64,000 bases of DNA, from NCBI GenBank assembly GCA_963779615.1, contig CAVZZA010000005.1, positions 320,001-384,000 on the forward strand. Direction: 5' to 3'. How positions within the stretch are numbered: position 1 is the stretch's first letter; the number at the start of each line of letters is the position of its first letter. A model generated the notes under the pieces. That model saw nothing but the letters and a program-made list of their open reading frames with translations. It had not been told where the DNA came from and ran no database searches. The position numbers were made by a program, and so were the translations under genes. The DNA comes from an uncultured Nitrososphaeraceae archaeon (GTDB lineage Archaea > Thermoproteota > Nitrososphaeria > Nitrososphaerales > Nitrososphaeraceae). Positions 2,027 through 50,555 of this stretch are shown in pieces.

Positions 2027-3670
2027 TCATAGCTTGGGTGGCAGCGGTGCTGTAACAGAGCGATTTTTTACGTATTTTGCTACGACATCTTCTGCAAGTT
2101 TGCCGTCAAAAAGACCTTTAGACAAACCCCTTAAATATTTCATAATGGCCCATGTGCCTGCTTTTATCAACATAGCCATAAATATTTTCATCGCAGGTCC
2201 ATATGATTTATTTCTAATAATTATCGGAATTATATTATCAATGACTTTGAGATTATGTTGCCAACATGTCCAGAAAAGTGCAAATTGTGATTCATTAAGA
2301 TTTCCAAAATGCATCGAATTTTTCTCTGAGAAATCCTGATATAACAAGGGTGCCACCAGTCCCCTCATATTCATTTGTTTAAAATCTTGTATCAAATCAA
2401 TAGTATATTGTGTTTCATCAGGGGTTTCATCAGGCCATCCAATAATCAATGTCAGTGCAGGAAACCAATGGTTGTTGTTTAGTATTTTACAACCCTCTCT
2501 TACAACTGAGCCCCATTCTTCAGGTTGAAATGGTTTTGTTTTAACACCCAGGTGTTTTTTTACCATTCTTGGCGCAACAGTTTCTACGCCCAAATTAGTT
2601 GCAAGCCATCGGCCATTATTCTCCATATCATTAACCAAGGATATTTTTTTAATTAAATCAGGAGATGAAGCAACAGCTGATAAGGTCATATGAGTCGTGC
2701 CAATAAAATTGGCGCCAATAGACTTTAACCCTTTCCAAACATCTAGTATTGCGTCCTGATTTGGAATAAAATCTTTATTATCGCATCCATACAACAGCAT
2801 CTCATCAGATTGAAGCCAAATAGAATCAAATCCATATTTAATATTTATTTTAGCTTCTTCTTGGAGCCGCGGCAAAGGAATGTCCTTTTTAGAACGTTTA
2901 TTTACATCACAAAAGTCACACCCCCTTCCACAGCCACGCATAGCTTCAATTAAAGAATTTATTGTTGGGCCTTGTATCGTGGGTATGTTTTCAATGTTTC
3001 TAACAAAAGTATGCAACAGTTCAGGGGCATCACCCGCTTCTAAATCATGGAAAAGGTCAAGTGCGAGTTCATCAGCTTCTCCAATAACAACTGTATCAAT
3101 TCCATGAATTTTCATTCTTTCAGGCTTTGCCAATTCCCAAGAACCATTACCTCCAACTACGACCTTAAAATCATATTTTTTCTTTAACTGTATGATGGAA
3201 GCACACATTTTTTTAAATTTCATTGCCACATAAGACAATTTTTCAGGAGACATTGTGGTAGTAACAGGAGCCATACCTAATGGATCCATAACGTTAATAC
3301 CCACTACTTTTGTATCAGGACCTATACATTTATCCAACATTTCAGGATGAGCAAGAAAAATATCATTTCGTGGATATTCCTGAAGCAGGGCGCTTTCAAT
3401 TCTTCGAAGTCCACATTGAGCAACTTTTATCTCTCCTGTATCTTTCTTAGTCTCTACACTAGGACAAAAAAGTTTATCAAAAACAAATTCCGGAACAAGT
3501 TCATAAGGACCGCATGCAATAAAGCCATAAAGGAAATTTCCTCTGTAATTTGTCATTAAACTACGATCAGCAGTTAAAACAATTCTTTTGCCCGATACCA
3601 ATTTTAATCTATATCCTATAATAACTATTATTAGAGAGTATAAAATTATTTTCATAGGGTTTAGGTTCAA
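2027..3670 (-). CDS. B12-binding domain radical SAM protein (true start probably TTG at ~3601)
   Basis: CxxxCxxC (RGCGRGCDFC); VVVGGNG and VIGEAD cobalamin-binding-domain motifs. Confidence 0.88.
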   Translation of the reverse strand: MNLNPMKIILYSLIIVIIGYRLKLVSGKRIVLTADRSLMTNYRGNFLYGFIACGPYELVPEFVFDKLFCPSVETKKDTGEIKVAQCGLRRIESALLQEYPRNDIFLAHPEMLDKCIGPDTKVVGINVMDPLGMAPVTTTMSPEKLSYVAMKFKKMCASIIQLKKKYDFKVVVGGNGSWELAKPERMKIHGIDTVVIGEADELALDLFHDLEAGDAPELLHTFVRNIENIPTIQGPTINSLIEAMRGCGRGCDFCDVNKRSKKDIPLPRLQEEAKINIKYGFDSIWLQSDEMLLYGCDNKDFIPNQDAILDVWKGLKSIGANFIGTTHMTLSAVASSPDLIKKISLVNDMENNGRWLATNLGVETVAPRMVKKHLGVKTKPFQPEEWGSVVREGCKILNNNHWFPALTLIIGWPDETPDETQYTIDLIQDFKQMNMRGLVAPLLYQDFSEKNSMHFGNLNESQFALFWTCWQHNLKVIDNIIPIIIRNKSYGPAMKIFMAMLIKAGTWAIMKYLRGLSKGLFDGKLAEDVVAKYVKNRSVTAPLPPKL

Positions 3671-31319: not shown

Positions 31320-31986
31320 GGCTCTGTTAACTTAAGAAAAAGCTATAGTCGCGATTATGCCATAAACAATATTGACATACAGAAGGCAGAGAACCAAACC
31401 GAAAGATGTTGCCTATTCCCTATATCTTTACTTCCTGGGTCTCTCTTGTAGAAGCACCGCAAAGGCGTTGAAGCGATTTGTGAAAAGGAGCCATGTATCA
31501 GTCTGGAAATGGATCCAGAAATACAGGCCAAAGAGGCTATCAACCAGGAGAAAAAAGATTAATGGATACATTGTTGACGAAACCCAGATTAAGGTTGGCT
31601 CCCAATGCATATGGCTTTGGGTTGCAATTGAGCCAAAACACAGGGAAATTCTTCAGATTGATGTGTCAGTTGAAAGAGCAATGCTAGTTGCCGAGAGATT
31701 TATTGCGTCTCTGGTAGATGGGTATGGAAAACATCCAGTTTCCACCGATGGGGGAACTTGGTATCCGCAAGCATGCAGGTTCCTGAAACTGAAACATCAT
31801 TTGCATTCCTCATTGGAGAAAAGCTTGATAGAAAGGGCAATGCAGTACATCAAGGACAGGACAGAAGGATTTGATGACTACTTTCCATGCCTAAAAAAGA
31901 AATGCAAACTAAAGCATGTAAAACAATGGTTGAACCTGTTTGCTTATTACCACAATAGGGGAATAATCTCTTAAGTTAACAGAGCC
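31320..31986 (+). mobile_element. IS6-family insertion sequence (copy 1)
   Basis: TIRs GGCTCTGTTAACTTAAGA and TCTTAAGTTAACAGAGCC; 8-bp TSD TTTTTTAT on both sides. Confidence 0.95.
31372..31974 (+). CDS. IS6-family transposase
   Basis: VDETQIK, WLWVAIE, STDGG, IERAMQYIKDR DDE motifs. Confidence 0.92.
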   Translation: MTYRRQRTKPKDVAYSLYLYFLGLSCRSTAKALKRFVKRSHVSVWKWIQKYRPKRLSTRRKKINGYIVDETQIKVGSQCIWLWVAIEPKHREILQIDVSVERAMLVAERFIASLVDGYGKHPVSTDGGTWYPQACRFLKLKHHLHSSLEKSLIERAMQYIKDRTEGFDDYFPCLKKKCKLKHVKQWLNLFAYYHNRGIIS

Positions 31987-43388: not shown

Positions 43389-44403
43389 TTAAGTTTTACA
43401 TTCTATTTATGTTCTCTATTCGCTATTTTGATTATCCTTATCTTTGTATTACCATGTGTGAATTTAATTTCAATAACATAATTCAAAACCTGCCTAAAAT
43501 AGAAAGAAATGCAGGCTAACAATCACCAATAACATGCACCCAATACCCACCAGCAGAAAAGTCCAAAACATCACCACAAAGTGTTAGATTAGTTACAGGA
43601 TTAAGCTATTGCGTTTATTACCTGATTGGAGTTTCAGGAACTCCAAAGATCACCCATTCTTTTCCCATTACGGTTATTTGATGCCATTGTGTATGCGTTC
43701 GACTGAAACCAATGGAAAATTCCACCAAGAGAATACGATTGTGACAGCATGTCAAAGATTTCAACAAGAGGTGGCAACTAGCAACATGCAATAGCAAAAA
43801 AGGAATCAATCAGCATTACAAATACTTGTTGAAAGCACAACAATAAAGTCACCTTTGGGAAAAACGGCAAGCAATTATCCTGAATAGAAGCAACAGGGGG
43901 ATAAGGAAAACATGTATAACATAACAAAATGGCATTGGCCTTTCTAAAGCTTTTACAATATCAGATAATGCTTCCCCCTGACATTGGGGATACATACACC
44001 TCATAAACAACACAAAAGACACAGAAAGACAAAACGCACCAAGAAAGATATCCTGGCAGACGTTTGTTTGTAAAGGGAGAACTATTCATGATACCGTGAT
44101 GGCTTACGAAACCTTTTGCAAGATCAAATAGAAAGAGGAGAATTATTTTAATTTAGCAAACTCACCAAGCTGTATAGCATTTGTAGGAAAGATTATTTGT
44201 ATATGTTTTTGACAAATGTGACATTTTGCATCATCAGCTAAACACCTTCGTCATGTTTAAAGCGTGACAGCATTAATCCCAAACTTTGAAGCTCAGGAAG
44301 ATACTGAAGAATTATCATGTAAAAATAAAAAAATAAATTGCCGCACAAAAAAGAATATTTTTAATGCCTGTGTTAGTTGGAGAAAGGAACTATTGTCATA
44401 AAA

Positions 44404-44649
44404 CTATTTTGAATTAACTACTAAAGAATTCGACTGAGTGTTTGAAGCTTCAGTGTTCAATCCATTAGCACTAGTCTGTCCCTTGCTGATTTGTATTATA
44501 ATTGTGTTCCCGTCGCCTGAAACGCCGTCTTTGTCCTTGTGTTTGTCGCCTGACGCGTATGACGATGGTGCTGCAATCAATGAGCCTGTTACCAAGACTG
44601 ATGCCGCGAAGATGGCGATTAATCCCAGTATCGTTTTTGAGTTAATCAT
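44404..44649 (-). CDS. small secreted protein, array member A (81 aa)
   Basis: Signal peptide, SYASGDKHKDKDGVSGDGNT, then unique C-terminus; start chosen from the conserved upstream TATA spacing. Confidence 0.85.
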   Translation of the reverse strand: MINSKTILGLIAIFAASVLVTGSLIAAPSSYASGDKHKDKDGVSGDGNTIIIQISKGQTSANGLNTEASNTQSNSLVVNSK

Positions 44650-44815
44650 ATTGTGATATTCAGTTACATTTCCATACATATAGCAAGTGAGGTACCTGAT
44701 ACTGCAAAATATATCTGTTTTATTAACATGAAAACATAAACATTGAAGGAAAAGCCCGCAAAGCAACAAAAATATACCTATATCCACAGGTTAAAAAGGC
44801 TTTGATTTTAAAACG

Positions 44816-45483
44816 GGCTCTGTTAACTTAAGAAAAAGACTATAGTCGCGATTATGCCATAAACAATATTGACATACAGAAGGCAGAGAACCAAACCGAA
44901 AGATGTTGCCTATTCCCTATATCTTTACTTCCTGGGTCTCTCTTGTAGAAGCACCGCAAAGGCGTTGAAGCGATTTGTGAAAAGGAGCCATGTATCAGTC
45001 TGGAAATGGATCCAGAAATACAGGCCAAAGAGGCTATCAACCAGGAGAAAAAAGATTAATGGATACATTGTTGACGAAACCCAGATTAAGGTTGGCTCCC
45101 AATGCATATGGCTTTGGGTTGCAATTGAGCCAAAACACAGGGAAATTCTTCAGATTGATGTGTCAGTTGAAAGAGCAATGCTAGTTGCCGAGAGATTTAT
45201 TGCGTCTCTGGTAGATGGGTATGGAAAACATCCAGTTTCCACCGATGGGGGAACTTGGTATCCGCAAGCATGCAGGTTCCTGAAACTGAAACATCATTTG
45301 CATTCCTCATTGGAGAAAAGCTTGATAGAAAGGGCGATGCAGTACATCAAGGACAGGACAGAAGGATTTGATGACTACTTTCCATGCCGAAAAAAGAAAT
45401 GCAAACTAAAGCATGTAAAACAATGGTTGAACCTGTTTGCTTATTACCACAATAGGGGAATAATCTCTTAAGTTAACAGAGCC
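44816..45483 (+). mobile_element. IS6-family insertion sequence (copy 2)
   Basis: Same TIRs as copy 1; 8-bp TSD TTAAAACG (44808-44815 and 45484-45491). Confidence 0.95.
44869..45471 (+). CDS. IS6-family transposase
   Basis: Identical to 31372-31974 except one L/R change. Confidence 0.92.
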   Translation: MTYRRQRTKPKDVAYSLYLYFLGLSCRSTAKALKRFVKRSHVSVWKWIQKYRPKRLSTRRKKINGYIVDETQIKVGSQCIWLWVAIEPKHREILQIDVSVERAMLVAERFIASLVDGYGKHPVSTDGGTWYPQACRFLKLKHHLHSSLEKSLIERAMQYIKDRTEGFDDYFPCRKKKCKLKHVKQWLNLFAYYHNRGIIS

Positions 45484-45640
45484 TTAAAACGCTACCGACT
45501 CCTTTGAATATCGGTATTTAATAATTTGGTTTGTTTTAAATAATTAGGTTTTTAAATCAGGAAAAAATAAAAATGGCGGCAGTGAGAAACTGCCAATGTG
45601 TTTTTTGTTGAAAGAATTTGTTTCTATCGAGTTAAACTAT

Positions 45641-45916
45641 TTATGGTATAAAAGGGACGTCATTAACACATTCTCCACCCTTAAATGCGATACAGTTGCT
45701 TTGCTCGTTGTCTGCGTCAACATCCCATCCACCTACAGGCTGCTTGTTTATGTTCTTGAAGTTGAGGTTGGTGTTCCCGTCGCCTGAAACGCCGTCTTTG
45801 TCCTTGTGTTTGTCGCCTGACGCGTATGACGATGGTGCTGCAATCAATGAGCCTGTTACCAAGACTGATGCTGCGAATATGGCGATTATACTTAAACTTG
45901 TTTTTGAACTAATCAT
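45641..45916 (-). CDS. small secreted protein, array member B (91 aa)
   Basis: Same leader and constant segment; C-terminus NLNFKN...NCIAFKGGEC. Confidence 0.85.
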   Translation of the reverse strand: MISSKTSLSIIAIFAASVLVTGSLIAAPSSYASGDKHKDKDGVSGDGNTNLNFKNINKQPVGGWDVDADNEQSNCIAFKGGECVNDVPFIP

Positions 45917-46403
45917 ATTGTGATATTCAGGTATACTTTTATGCATATATAAGGTGAGTTTCCTGATACTGCAAAACATATCTGTATTATTTATATGAAA
46001 AAGTGTTTTTTATACCATAAATAAGAAACATGGGTTACTGTTAAGCATTTAGGTTAGTACACCTTTTCAACGTTAGGGCATTGTTCATCAATTGAAGATT
46101 TTGTAATCGAATGGTTTCGTAGTGATAATGTAAGGTATCGTAATACTGAAACAGATAGGCGACAATGAATTAGTAACTTTTCTTTAAATCAACGATTTAC
46201 AATAAGATTAGGATATATTATTTGCTGTGTGTTTAATACAAATAAGTAATACTATTTGGCAATTTTCTTCCCTCGAAGTTATTAATAAGAAGAAAAAATT
46301 GTAAAGATTTTTGAGCGACATAAAAAAATGGAAAATGATAGGCGCATGGAGAAAAAGCAGGATCCTCCCATAGAGGATTATTAGTTAACCCCCTAGCCAG
46401 AAT

Positions 46404-46664
46404 TTAGCAAGATGCAAGCTTAAAAGTTAAGCAGTTTTTTTGCGTGTTTGTTGCTGTAACGTCAGAGCCACTAGCTTTGGCCTCTCCTTTGCTGATTTGT
46501 ATAGTAATTGTGTTCCCGTCGCCTGAAACGCCGTCTTTGTCCTTGCTTTTATCCTTGTGGCCTCCGCCTGACGCGTATGAAGGTGTCGCGAGTAGTACTC
46601 CCGTTACCAAGACTGATGCTGCGAATATGGCGATTATACTTAAACTTGTTTTTGAGTTAATCAT
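46404..46664 (-). CDS. small secreted protein, array member C (86 aa)
   Basis: Same leader; C-terminus ITIQISKG...NCLTFKLASC. Confidence 0.85.
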   Translation of the reverse strand: MINSKTSLSIIAIFAASVLVTGVLLATPSYASGGGHKDKSKDKDGVSGDGNTITIQISKGEAKASGSDVTATNTQKNCLTFKLASC

Positions 46665-46966
46665 ATTGTGATATTCAGTTGTACTTTTATGTATATATAG
46701 GAAGTGAGTTTCCTGATACTGCAAAACATATCTATTTAATCGACATAGAAAAAACTACAGATATGTTGGTAAAATAATTGCACTGTAATTAGCGCAGGCG
46801 TAAGTAGTTTATTGCGCTTCCAAAATTGTTGTGTTTATAGCCCATCAAGGGATATACATAATAATTAAAATCAAAAATTAAAAAAGACAGGTATCTATAA
46901 AAAGAATATTGTTGCAACAGCAAAAAGCTGCCAAGTGTTTTTTTGTGGCTATAAAATACTTTTTAG

Positions 46967-47257
46967 TTATCCACCAATTCCACCAATGAGGCCAAGATCT
47001 AAGCCCAGTTCACAGGCTGCAAGCTTGAAGGTTAGACAGTTGCTTTGGTCATTTGGTGCCTCATTGTCAAATCCACTGATAATTGGCTTGTTCGAATTCT
47101 TGAACTTGAGGTTGGTGTTCCCGTCGCCTGAAACGCCGTCTTTGTCCTTGTGTTTGTCGCCTGACGCGTATGAAGGTGCTGCAATCAATGAGCCTGTTAC
47201 CAAGACTGATGCTGCGAATATGGCGATTATACTTAAACTTGTTTTTGAACTAATCAT
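46967..47257 (-). CDS. small secreted protein, array member D (96 aa)
   Basis: Same leader; C-terminus NLKFKN...NCLTFKLAAC plus Gly/Leu tail. Confidence 0.85.
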   Translation of the reverse strand: MISSKTSLSIIAIFAASVLVTGSLIAAPSYASGDKHKDKDGVSGDGNTNLKFKNSNKPIISGFDNEAPNDQSNCLTFKLAACELGLDLGLIGGIGG

Positions 47258-47325
47258 ATTGTGATATTCAGGTATACTTTTATGCATATATAAGGTGAGT
47301 TTCCTGATACTGCAAAACATATCTA
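47258..47325 (-). promoter_or_regulatory. conserved promoter block repeated before all four array genes (also ~44650-44716, 45917-45983, 46665-46733)
   Basis: AGATATGTTTTGCAGTATCAGGAAACTCACCTTATATATG...CTGAATATCACAAT-ATG; TATA-like element ~27 nt before ATG implies leaderless mRNA. Confidence 0.7.
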
Positions 47326-47850
47326 TTAGATTAGCATGGAAAAAAATTTCAGATAAAATGTTGACAATAACTTTATTTTTATAATTAAAACTAATTTGTA
47401 TTACAAATTCTGTCAGTCATTGTTATATAAAAAAAGATTGAGACAACGTTTTTTAGTGACTTTGAAAAACCTGGTCTATAACTATATGTGACACATCAGT
47501 TTAATACAGAGTAACGTTTTCTTATCATATGGCTAATGATTAAACATAACCAATTTAGGAAAGTTTACTTCATGATAAGATGGATTTCCGGATCCAAATC
47601 ATAATTAAAGCAAATATTATAGAATGTATTTAAACTACAGAATTACATAAAAAGGTTTTTGAAGACACCTATCTTCACTAACGACAGATGATTACATTTT
47701 TTCAATGTTACCAATGATGGGTTTGGTCTCAATCATAACCTTCGTGTTGTCATGGTGACATAGCAAAACCTGTTCCTTTGACATCCCCATACAGTAATTC
47801 AAATATGAGATCAAGGCGACTCAATCTTACTCTGGGAAAAACCGGTAAGA

Positions 47851-48306
47851 TCACTTGCATTCATCACTTCCATGTTTGCAAAAGGCCTTCACACCTAGTC
47901 CCAATACACTGGCCGCAATTGGTGCAACAATCATAGTAGAGCTTGTTGGAAGTTTTAATTGGCTCATTATCATGGTCACAATGGATGTTCCTGAAGGGTT
48001 CGTTTCCGTTTCAATTTTCTTGCGGATTGTACCATTTGGATTACACAACTCTTCATGCAAAACGTCAGCATATGCAATCCAAATTGACCTGCCATCAGGA
48101 TAAGTTCGATTATATACTAGATCCACCTCGTACAAACTAGGCATAACCAAATCCAAATCACCGCCGGATCTTCGATAATTTATTAGAATTTCCTCAAGTT
48201 TATAGTAGATTGCACTCAAGTTACCATTAGAATTACGAACCTTAAGTGCAAGTTGTTCAGCAAGCTCGCCTGCCTTCTCAATGTCAGATTGAATCAATTT
48301 AATCAC
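47851..48306 (-). CDS. hypothetical protein
   Basis: 151-aa ORF with coding-like composition. Confidence 0.65.
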   Translation of the reverse strand: MIKLIQSDIEKAGELAEQLALKVRNSNGNLSAIYYKLEEILINYRRSGGDLDLVMPSLYEVDLVYNRTYPDGRSIWIAYADVLHEELCNPNGTIRKKIETETNPSGTSIVTMIMSQLKLPTSSTMIVAPIAASVLGLGVKAFCKHGSDECK

Positions 48307-50319: not shown

Positions 50320-50555
50320 AAGTTCTTTTTCTTTGAGGAAAGCCTCTGGTTTGTACTTTTGGATCCAGTTCCGGCTGGAAACACGGTTTCGTTTGGTAAA
50401 GTACGAGGACAGTATTTGCGAGTCCTTGTTAAAGACAGACCTGCAAAATAAAAACATAATCCATAGCCAATACGCACTGAAGGTGCCCTGTTTCTAGTAA
50501 TCACAATGGAGATAGGCATCTTCAAGCTACAGGATTTAGTTGAGTGAACAGAGCC
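50320..50555 (-). mobile_element. IS6-family 5' remnant
   Basis: Left TIR-like GGCTCTGTTCACTCAAC; RNRAP...YGLCFYFAGLS and out-of-frame NWIQKYKP. Confidence 0.7.

Follow-up and report, generated by a model that had tools for sequence, protein, structure and literature searches.

A four-gene array of small, predicted secreted proteins in a Nitrososphaeraceae archaeon and the unannotated protein family defined by its shared module

Gene arrays whose small secreted products are paralogues with one common leader are a familiar theme. Chaplins and curli subunits are small and Sec-exported; the chaplins are hydrophobic and possess one conserved cysteine pair, and the curlin repeats are strand-turn-strand units rich in Q, N, G and S, five of which follow in tandem in CsgA, with csgB and csgEFG as the dedicated nucleator and secretion genes. 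The Sec-dependent class II bacteriocins and the archaeocins (halocins and sulfolobicins) are small exported peptides as well, often with disulfides and often encoded in multi-gene loci. In Synechococcus elongatus PCC 7942, a four-gene operon encodes EbfG1-4, small secreted proteins that, according to PMC9981879, are required for biofilm and are located at the surface and in the matrix, EbfG1-3 being amyloid; PMC4997328 describes a double-glycine leader for these proteins. Here we describe an array of four genes, denoted A to D, from an uncultured soil ammonia-oxidising archaeon of the family Nitrososphaeraceae (GenBank assembly GCA_963779615.1). The array lies in a stretch of 64,000 nucleotides (nt), positions 320,001 to 384,000 of contig CAVZZA010000005.1, which is called the window hereafter and supplies all window coordinates below. 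The array resembles the ebfG operon in that the products of four adjacent genes are small and exported, have the export leader in common and differ in their mature parts, but A-D use a Sec-type signal peptide, have a promoter of their own for each gene and show no sequence relationship to EbfG. What is unusual here, judging from the alignments, is that the module in the C-terminal part of each of the four proteins recurs as an N-terminal head on larger secreted proteins. In the reading that we prefer, with a probability of roughly 40%, this module would be an extracellular association unit, and A-D would work jointly, either on the cell surface or within the matrix.

An initial annotation of this DNA had proposed four co-oriented genes, and the open reading frames (ORFs) and translations agree with it in every coordinate. 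With the start of each ORF placed at the ATG behind a conserved upstream block, the genes are the following:

44404-44649, minus strand: gene A, 81 amino acids (aa), with an A-type module that is free of cysteine and a C-terminal NSK
45641-45916, minus strand: gene B, 91 aa, with a B-type module and a short hydrophobic tail
46404-46664, minus strand: gene C, 86 aa, with a C-type module, an A-like head, a D-like tail and a C-terminal cysteine as the last residue
46967-47257, minus strand: gene D, 96 aa, with a signal peptide, a K/D spacer, a D-type module and a Gly/Leu-rich tail

As read from the ORFs, all four frames are intact. The proteins share an N-terminus of the form M-I-N/S-S-K, about 20 hydrophobic residues and P-S-(S)-Y-A, which constitutes a near-identical Sec-type signal peptide of 32 or 31 aa with the final residues SYA; the type of signal and the cleavage site were read by eye from alignments. 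A charged K/D/G spacer with the last residues K-D-K-D-G-V-S-G-D-G-N-T follows, and both the signal peptide and this constant charged segment are common to A-D in the alignment, as had been claimed. Two other classes of leader were considered and rejected: the double-glycine-leader peptides (EbfG-like peptides and class II bacteriocins), as the leader of A-D reads as a hydrophobic Sec-type signal, and the archaeal type IV pilin-like proteins with a class III signal, as the hydrophobic stretch, the small-x-small site (SYA, AFA) and the charged spacer form a Sec layout by alignment reading. The predicted mature proteins have 49-65 aa, masses of 5.0-6.7 kDa and isoelectric points of 4.5-8.7, with net charges of 0, -4, +2 and -2. 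They are hydrophilic, the grand average of hydropathy (GRAVY) being -0.54 to -0.90, or -0.15 to -0.57 for the module and tail alone; N, Q, S, T and G make up 37-55% of their residues, and A has no aromatic residue. By this layout and the conservation described below, A-D are real conserved genes for small, predicted Sec-exported proteins.

The region past G-N-T is homologous throughout, in an alignment of 21 relatives and then in one of the mature parts alone, and corresponds to one module of ~38 residues with the consensus G-N-T..T.Q...S-G-F...N.I/C...C. Its landmarks are the G-N-T start, T-x-Q, a basic K-Q-K turn, an invariant S-G-(F), Q/N...N-x-I and the closing cysteine. The mature-part alignment places the four copies in the window as follows:

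44407-44511, minus strand: A-type module
45668-45778, minus strand: B-type module
46407-46517, minus strand: C-type module
47012-47122, minus strand: D-type module, 37 aa, with C-x7-C

The motifs initially reported all recur at these places (IxIQISKG in A and C, NLxFKNxNK in B and D, C-x7-C in B, C and D, and no cysteine in A). The motifs also served to sort 68 proteins, drawn from 69 close relatives found by a single-sequence search with A and from 10 stored relatives, into the following types:

Type A: 22 clusters, cysteine-free, ending in NSK
Type B: 13 clusters
Type C: 13 clusters, nearly invariant, with a within-type identity of 0.95
Type D: 8 clusters, with the Gly/Leu-rich tail
Type E: 8 clusters, absent from the array in the window
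Unclassified: 4 clusters

Among these 68 proteins, module identity is 0.69-0.95 inside a type compared with 0.28-0.60 across types, and leader identity is alike inside types (0.77-0.84) and across types (0.78-0.81). The module ends are, on this comparison of proteins, old and discrete paralogue types under constraint; the retention of the cysteine-free A type in 22 clusters marks it as a conserved variant, not a decayed copy. The description of the C-termini as variable and shuffled is not supported in that form: they are not free cassettes but five discrete, conserved types of one homologous module. The mosaic structure of C is real. In DNA, codons 1-9 of the C module match A at 23 of 27 positions and D at 6 of 27, whereas codons 23-34 match D at 27 of 36 and A at 14 of 33, which confirms the A-like head and D-like end of C.

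The DNA identity among the four genes breaks off where the module begins. From the ATG to GGGAACAC, 119-142 of 143-146 positions are identical in pairwise comparisons, with the maximum for B and D (142/143), and in the next 111 columns past GGGAACAC the number of identical positions is a mere 45-72 of 109-111; the abrupt end of identity reported for this point is thus borne out by the counts. The same boundary is apparent in the synonymous (dS) and non-synonymous (dN) divergence. For B and D, dS is 0 over 40 constant codons and ~0.95 over 31 module codons, with a dN of 0.34 in the latter; for the other pairs, the constant-part dS is 0.34-0.58, and the module dS is at least 1.2 or saturated. 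In every pair among A-D, the module dN is smaller than dS, so diversifying selection leaves no sign in the module (dN/dS <1 in all pairs). Trees of the leader and of the module were built from 59 rows, nine having been left out (4 unclassified proteins and 5 with a leader of <42 residues or with <28 residues past G-N-T). In the module tree, the five types require a minimum of 4 changes (shuffled mean, 31.1), a result that is partly circular because the types are defined from module motifs. The non-circular result is that for the leader tree, which needs 29 type changes where shuffling gives 33.4 on average; in three sets, proteins of different types have identical leaders. Two metagenome contigs (L047 and L048) are colinear with window positions 46560-45485 over ~1.05 kb at 80-82% identity, the colinear stretch including the 3' end of C, the spacer, B and the downstream sequence, with the order C-B-A.

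In our reading, the sharp identity boundary is the product of gene conversion of the 5' half, by which the promoter, the signal peptide and the spacer appear to have been homogenised among the paralogues within the genome. The array, at least its C-B-A portion, would be inherited, with gene conversion evening out the leaders and selection keeping the modules distinct. A second unusual feature is that, by the pairwise counts, gene conversion stops exactly at the module boundary, which would make the array a clean case of concerted evolution in the promoter, the signal peptide and the spacer alone, the functional modules remaining distinct.

Beyond the window, a profile search of Nitrososphaeraceae genomes, which had been suggested as a check, did recover relatives: the profile of the four proteins detects them in 10 of 201 genomes, the window genome included. 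A profile of the module only, against which A-D themselves score with E-values of 3e-11 to 3e-17, is positive in 8 of 238 Nitrososphaeraceae genomes and in 5 of 18 genera, and the module was found in none of 322 sampled genomes from 19 other families of the class. When 8000 candidates from a set of 5.8 billion proteins were scored with a broad profile, 1347 of them reached E<=1e-3; an exhaustive search with this profile yields 259 clusters at 50% identity, 109 of these at E<=1e-10. The layout of this family (a signal peptide, a charged spacer and the module within the first ~100 residues) is also that of A-D. The 120 family proteins listed are all free of Pfam domains, and almost every one bears the name 'hypothetical'. 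Sequence searches gave no usable match in Pfam (A-D at E<=0.1), NCBIfam or the PDB (best PDB E-value, 0.32), and those in the ESM Atlas gave unnamed Nitrososphaerota clusters only; no published description of the module family was found in the literature, the supplementary datasets of PMC12448741, with biofilm transcriptomes of ammonia-oxidising archaea, aside. As far as these profile searches reach, the module defines a large, previously undescribed family, found in them only in Nitrososphaeraceae. Soil ammonia-oxidising archaea drive nitrification and little is known of what they place outside the cell, so the definition of a large unannotated secreted family in this ecologically important group is of interest in itself.

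The number of copies per genome varies widely, with at least 32 in genome G015, 10 in G049, 5 in G006 and 2 each in G024 and G027. G015 is a 5-Mb metagenome-assembled genome (MAG) in which ten copies are spread over ~72 kb amid unrelated genes (contig C36, 74-146 kb; loci L032 and L033), several of the G015 copies being long forms with Thr/Pro linkers. Two 20-kb stretches of this array region contain no obvious machinery as judged from an ORF listing, and a query with protein P0005 for further related loci in genome contigs returned the G015 MAG alone, while a query of the same kind with A2 returned nothing. In the genus of the window genome, the array occurs in the window genome alone; the second match among 34 genomes was weak, and the module profile did not confirm it. 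The window genome has the four genes and one pseudogene of the family. The latter (contig C2 of this genome, ~2200-2400, minus strand; locus L050) is of the 'canonical' subtype, with an MN..KTLAIVAVL leader, a G-N-T module and two in-frame stops, and by its sequence the window genome once had, or acquired, the other subfamily. A further small ORF of the same genome (contig C1, 424654-424779; locus L005) has a similar signal peptide and a G-G-D-K-H-K-N-N-D-K spacer and contains no module, which suggests that the leader-spacer cassette is perhaps common beyond the family.

The long relatives connect the module to other secreted proteins. In 56 family members of 211-329 aa, the signal, the spacer and the module at the N-terminus are followed by a Thr/Pro-rich linker and further domains. 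Of 132 diverse representatives with a module match, 118 have a module that begins no later than residue 70, and the tail past the module is up to 15 aa long in 35, 16-40 aa in 23, 41-80 aa in 26 and >80 aa in 48. One family member has collagen repeats. Nearly all the long forms have a four-cysteine module (K-C-K ... Q-E-C-E and I-C-T-H-P...C); the subfamily in the window has two cysteines or none. The sole tail that was modelled, in the long relative P0123, is a beta-sandwich with a predicted local distance difference test (pLDDT) score above 90 in AlphaFold2. In Foldseek searches, it is weakly similar to immunoglobulin (Ig)-like domains of Gram-positive pilins and adhesins, with 3 matches at E<=1e-3 and template modelling scores of 0.22-0.32, which are normalised to the whole 215-aa P0123 query, ~100 aa of it well modelled. 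The domains in question come from the sortase-assembled pilins and adhesins Spy0128, T-antigens, SpaC and GBS52 (E 7e-4 to 2e-2). The relatives are also weakly similar in their N-terminal part to the SpaH/EbpB LPXTG pilins (NF033902), at 16.4-22.9 bits compared with a cut-off of 95, and in the NCBIfam search NF033902 did not match A-D; unlike the sortase pilins, the window proteins have no Ig-like domain. From the alignment with these relatives, A-D are 'head-only' proteins, whereas elsewhere in the family the head is joined to varied secreted proteins.

We read the module, which many relatives carry as an N-terminal head of larger secreted proteins, as an association unit. It would serve for docking or assembly outside the cell; A-D would be made together from identical promoters and, after export and cleavage of the signal peptide, would be complementary small structural subunits at the surface or in the matrix. 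If the module is indeed an assembly or docking unit, it would open a way to study the making of surfaces, aggregates and biofilms by these archaea. The Nitrosocosmicus clade is described in PMC12448741 as S-layer-free and attaching as aggregates, without known adhesion proteins. These surface traits bear on the array only if the genus of the window genome is that clade.

The same architecture is hard to reconcile with the alternative that A-D are diffusible peptides, an archaeocin-like or signalling family in which the shared leader serves export and each type is a distinct active peptide, given that the module heads proteins with tails of >80 aa in 48/132 representatives. This alternative, which we consider unlikely, does draw on several features of the locus: the predicted products are small and Sec-exported, a disulfide loop would shut their C-terminal end, and the genes are an accessory, patchy trait in a non-syntenic region rich in insertion sequences (ISs). 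Furthermore, secreted peptide families typically come as arrays of paralogues in which the leader is common and the mature parts diverge. However, no immunity, transporter, processing or receptor/kinase gene was recognised next to the array in the window or found to recur among 28 ORFs neighbouring the relatives, and the strong conservation of each type gives no hint of an arms race. Unlike the bacteriocins and archaeocins, A-D have no recognised immunity or transport gene beside them and are not cationic, being near-neutral to acidic, hydrophilic and not amphipathic, and their module is also found on large proteins.

The cysteines of the module covary in a manner that points to a fold. Among 310 unique module rows, cysteines in columns 9 and 26 are both present in 80 and both absent in 223, with 3 discordant rows, and 249 of the 250 rows with the final cysteine (column 38) have a partner cysteine at column 29 or 31, these two being mutually exclusive (91 and 187 rows, respectively). 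The covariation of Cys9 and Cys26 indicates that the first segment (T-x-T-x-Q-x-N/C) adjoins the second (Q-x-A/C-x-N-x-I), and the pairing of the closing cysteine indicates a short C-terminal loop shut by a second disulfide. As the covariation demonstrates, within what alignments can tell, the module is a folded unit with one or two disulfides and, in the A type, none; in the window, B, C and D would have the loop disulfide only and A none. T3, T5, Q7, Q24 and N28 are conserved, each of them occurring in 233-304 of the 310 rows. Structure prediction adds little to this picture. AlphaFold2 modelled D (123 sequences) with a mean pLDDT of 50.4, giving the helix of the signal peptide only and no strands, and modelled the module of P0123 with a pLDDT of ~43; these monomers provide no confident fold of the module, and the beta-stacking expected by the initial annotation did not appear in them.

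A narrower version of the association-unit reading is a self-assembling fibre, in which stacked strand-turn-strand arches of types A-D would make up a filament of the cross-beta or donor-strand kind, the K/D spacer would be a fuzzy coat and the long Ig-domain members would decorate the same filament in other genera. The arrangement of two short beta-prone segments around a polar loop, with T, Q and N conserved at alternate sites, would suit such stacking, and the Cys9-Cys26 covariation makes neighbours of the two segments. A single array retains several conserved types of subunit behind identical promoters, a long relative has a pilin/adhesin-like Ig domain (in the one tail modelled), and the ebfG operon of Synechococcus would be a published functional analogue (PMC9981879). 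Nevertheless, we consider the fibre quite unlikely. No Pfam match to Curlin_rpt or to the chaplin family is obtained at E<=0.1; the mature chains are hydrophilic and A is devoid of aromatic residues; the AlphaFold2 monomer of D contains no strands; and a Pfam-level check reveals no nucleator, secretion or assembly genes nearby. Moreover, there is one module per protein and no repeat array, two module stretches being present in 3 of the 150 representatives listed. A candidate with six such 'stretches' (P0298, 597 aa) proved to be an unrelated repeat protein and was rejected as a false positive; the only clear natural tandem seen is the 110-aa metagenome protein P0303, with two cysteine-free modules. 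Both in A-D and in the chaplins and curli, short forms coexist in the family with forms that have extra domains, but A-D are hydrophilic single-module proteins without a Pfam match or accessory assembly genes nearby, and the resemblance to curlins and chaplins asserted by the initial annotation finds no support in the Pfam searches or in the hydropathy of the chains. A related and equally doubtful proposition gives the module the part of a polymerisation handle, through which an extracellular filament or matrix lattice as yet undescribed in archaea would be built: the head-only types A-E would form a shaft or mesh, the Ig-domain members would be displayed on it, and gene conversion, by holding all subunits to a single promoter and a single leader, would keep their production in step.

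The conserved polar face T-x-T-x-Q / Q-x-x-x-N, formed by T3, T5, Q7, Q24 and N28, could also belong to a small extracellular domain that does not assemble at all and instead binds a ligand or protects (a glycan, mineral, metal or ice-like surface), or inhibits an enzyme. A disulfide-stapled unit that heads varied secreted proteins would agree with such a role, which we nonetheless hold to be rather improbable: Pfam, NCBIfam and the PDB hold no similarity to a known binding or inhibitor family, the I-C-T-H-P motif of many relatives is absent from A-D, which makes a conserved metal site unlikely, and the joint retention of several distinct types is left unexplained.

The regulatory sequences of the four genes are conserved along with the leader. 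Each gene is preceded by a conserved block of ~85 nt; the promoter copy claimed for each gene is therefore present but is longer than the ~65 nt first assigned to it. On the other side, T5-T7 runs occur up to 41-106 nt past each stop, preceded by a small hairpin in three of the four genes:

47258-47342, minus strand: promoter region of D, with the upstream block CAGATATGTTTTGCAGTATC and, at ~33-44 nt before the ATG, a TATA-like CTTATATATGCA
46665-46749, minus strand: promoter region of C, conserved block
45917-46001, minus strand: promoter region of B, conserved block
44650-44734, minus strand: promoter region of A, conserved block
46870-46966, minus strand: 3' flank of D, with a hairpin and T5 and T6 runs
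46320-46403, minus strand: 3' flank of C, with a hairpin and T5 and T7 runs
45560-45640, minus strand: 3' flank of B, with a hairpin followed by T5 and T6 runs
44320-44403, minus strand: 3' flank of A, with T6, T7 and T5 runs, a likely terminator

CAGATATGTTTTGCAGTATC and CTTATATATGCA are, we infer, putative promoter elements. In the 75 nt before the ATG, A-D are identical at 57-69 of 73 positions in pairwise comparisons. A metagenome scan for related loci yielded four short contigs, and the same promoter block precedes five further gene copies on four independent metagenome contigs. With a promoter block and a T-run 3' flank for each gene, A-D appear to be separate transcription units, and the recurrence of the promoter block and the module types on independent metagenome contigs places the array far beyond chance.

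Contigs from four soil RNA libraries, all of one study, match the A, B and D modules and 3' flanks at ~97-99% identity. The contig over A (44340-44492) includes the module end and 64 nt of the flank, with 4 differences; that over B (45609-45791) includes the module and 32 nt of the flank, with 3 differences and 1 gap; and that over the D module (46961-47115) has 3 differences. These contigs fit the idea that close relatives transcribe the genes in soil; the intergenic parts had no cover, to which no weight is given. In two runs (X1 and X4), RNA contigs fuse a B-type module to a C-like leader (window 45770 / 46510) across a 36-nt shared stretch; this join is either a natural recombinant of a related strain or an assembly chimera. 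That the genes are non-functional repeat ORFs or decaying duplicates might be suspected from the IS insertion in the region and from the family pseudogene elsewhere in the genome, but the frames are intact, each type is represented by 8-22 clusters, dN is smaller than dS, the promoters are conserved across contigs and RNA-library contigs lie over three of the four genes, which leaves decay with a next to negligible probability.

Several observations weigh against a role of A-D as associating subunits at the cell surface. The pLDDT of the module is <50 in both contexts modelled, which leaves the cysteine covariation as the evidence for a folded association unit. The window genome has no long Ig-domain member, so the analogy to a 'head' comes from other genera, and the presence of the array in 1 of 34 genomes of the genus, with one weak match in addition, makes it dispensable. 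The IS-rich, non-syntenic region fits an accessory competition or communication trait as well. The location and partners of A-D are putative, the cleavage site is a by-eye reading of alignments, and the RNA contigs come from one study, DNA carry-over being possible.

The genes around the array are a glyoxalase-fold protein, a PNPOx-like protein and a transporter of the MFS family, which by their Pfam assignments are unrelated to it. No gene family recurs among the 28 ORFs neighbouring the relatives' genes in 3-kb loci, and no small conserved ORF or membrane-protein gene stands beside the array genes in the window or in the relatives' loci. The absence of adjacent modifying enzymes, as initially reported, is confirmed by Pfam for the window neighbourhood and extends to the relatives' 28 ORFs. 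The region shows no synteny with five congeners and is rich in ISs. Two features of the neighbourhood are the following:

47851-48306, minus strand: 151-aa ORF upstream of D, unmatched in Pfam and NCBIfam, with a hydrophobic stretch at the C-terminus
44816-45483, plus strand: IS of 668 bp between B and A, with a DDE_Tnp_IS240 transposase ORF at 44869-45471

The 151-aa ORF is kept in 25 of 33 congeners and missing in the other array-bearing genomes, a distribution unrelated to that of the array, so it is not a partner. The IS has 18-bp perfect inverted repeats, and the 8-bp target TTAAAACG is duplicated on either side of it (44808-44815 and 45484-45491); an intact element with perfect repeats and target duplication indicates a recent insertion. 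In the metagenome contig L047, the next family gene lies 343 nt past B with no IS between the two. The IS is an intruder and not a part of the array system. It is of the IS240/IS6 type, and a second 200-aa ORF of the same length is located at 31372-31974 of the window. Dozens of related IS copies are present in congeners, most of them in genome G001, and a stretch of ~200 nt at window ~50348-50555, which in congeners is found directly beside the same IS, is probably an IS-associated fragment.

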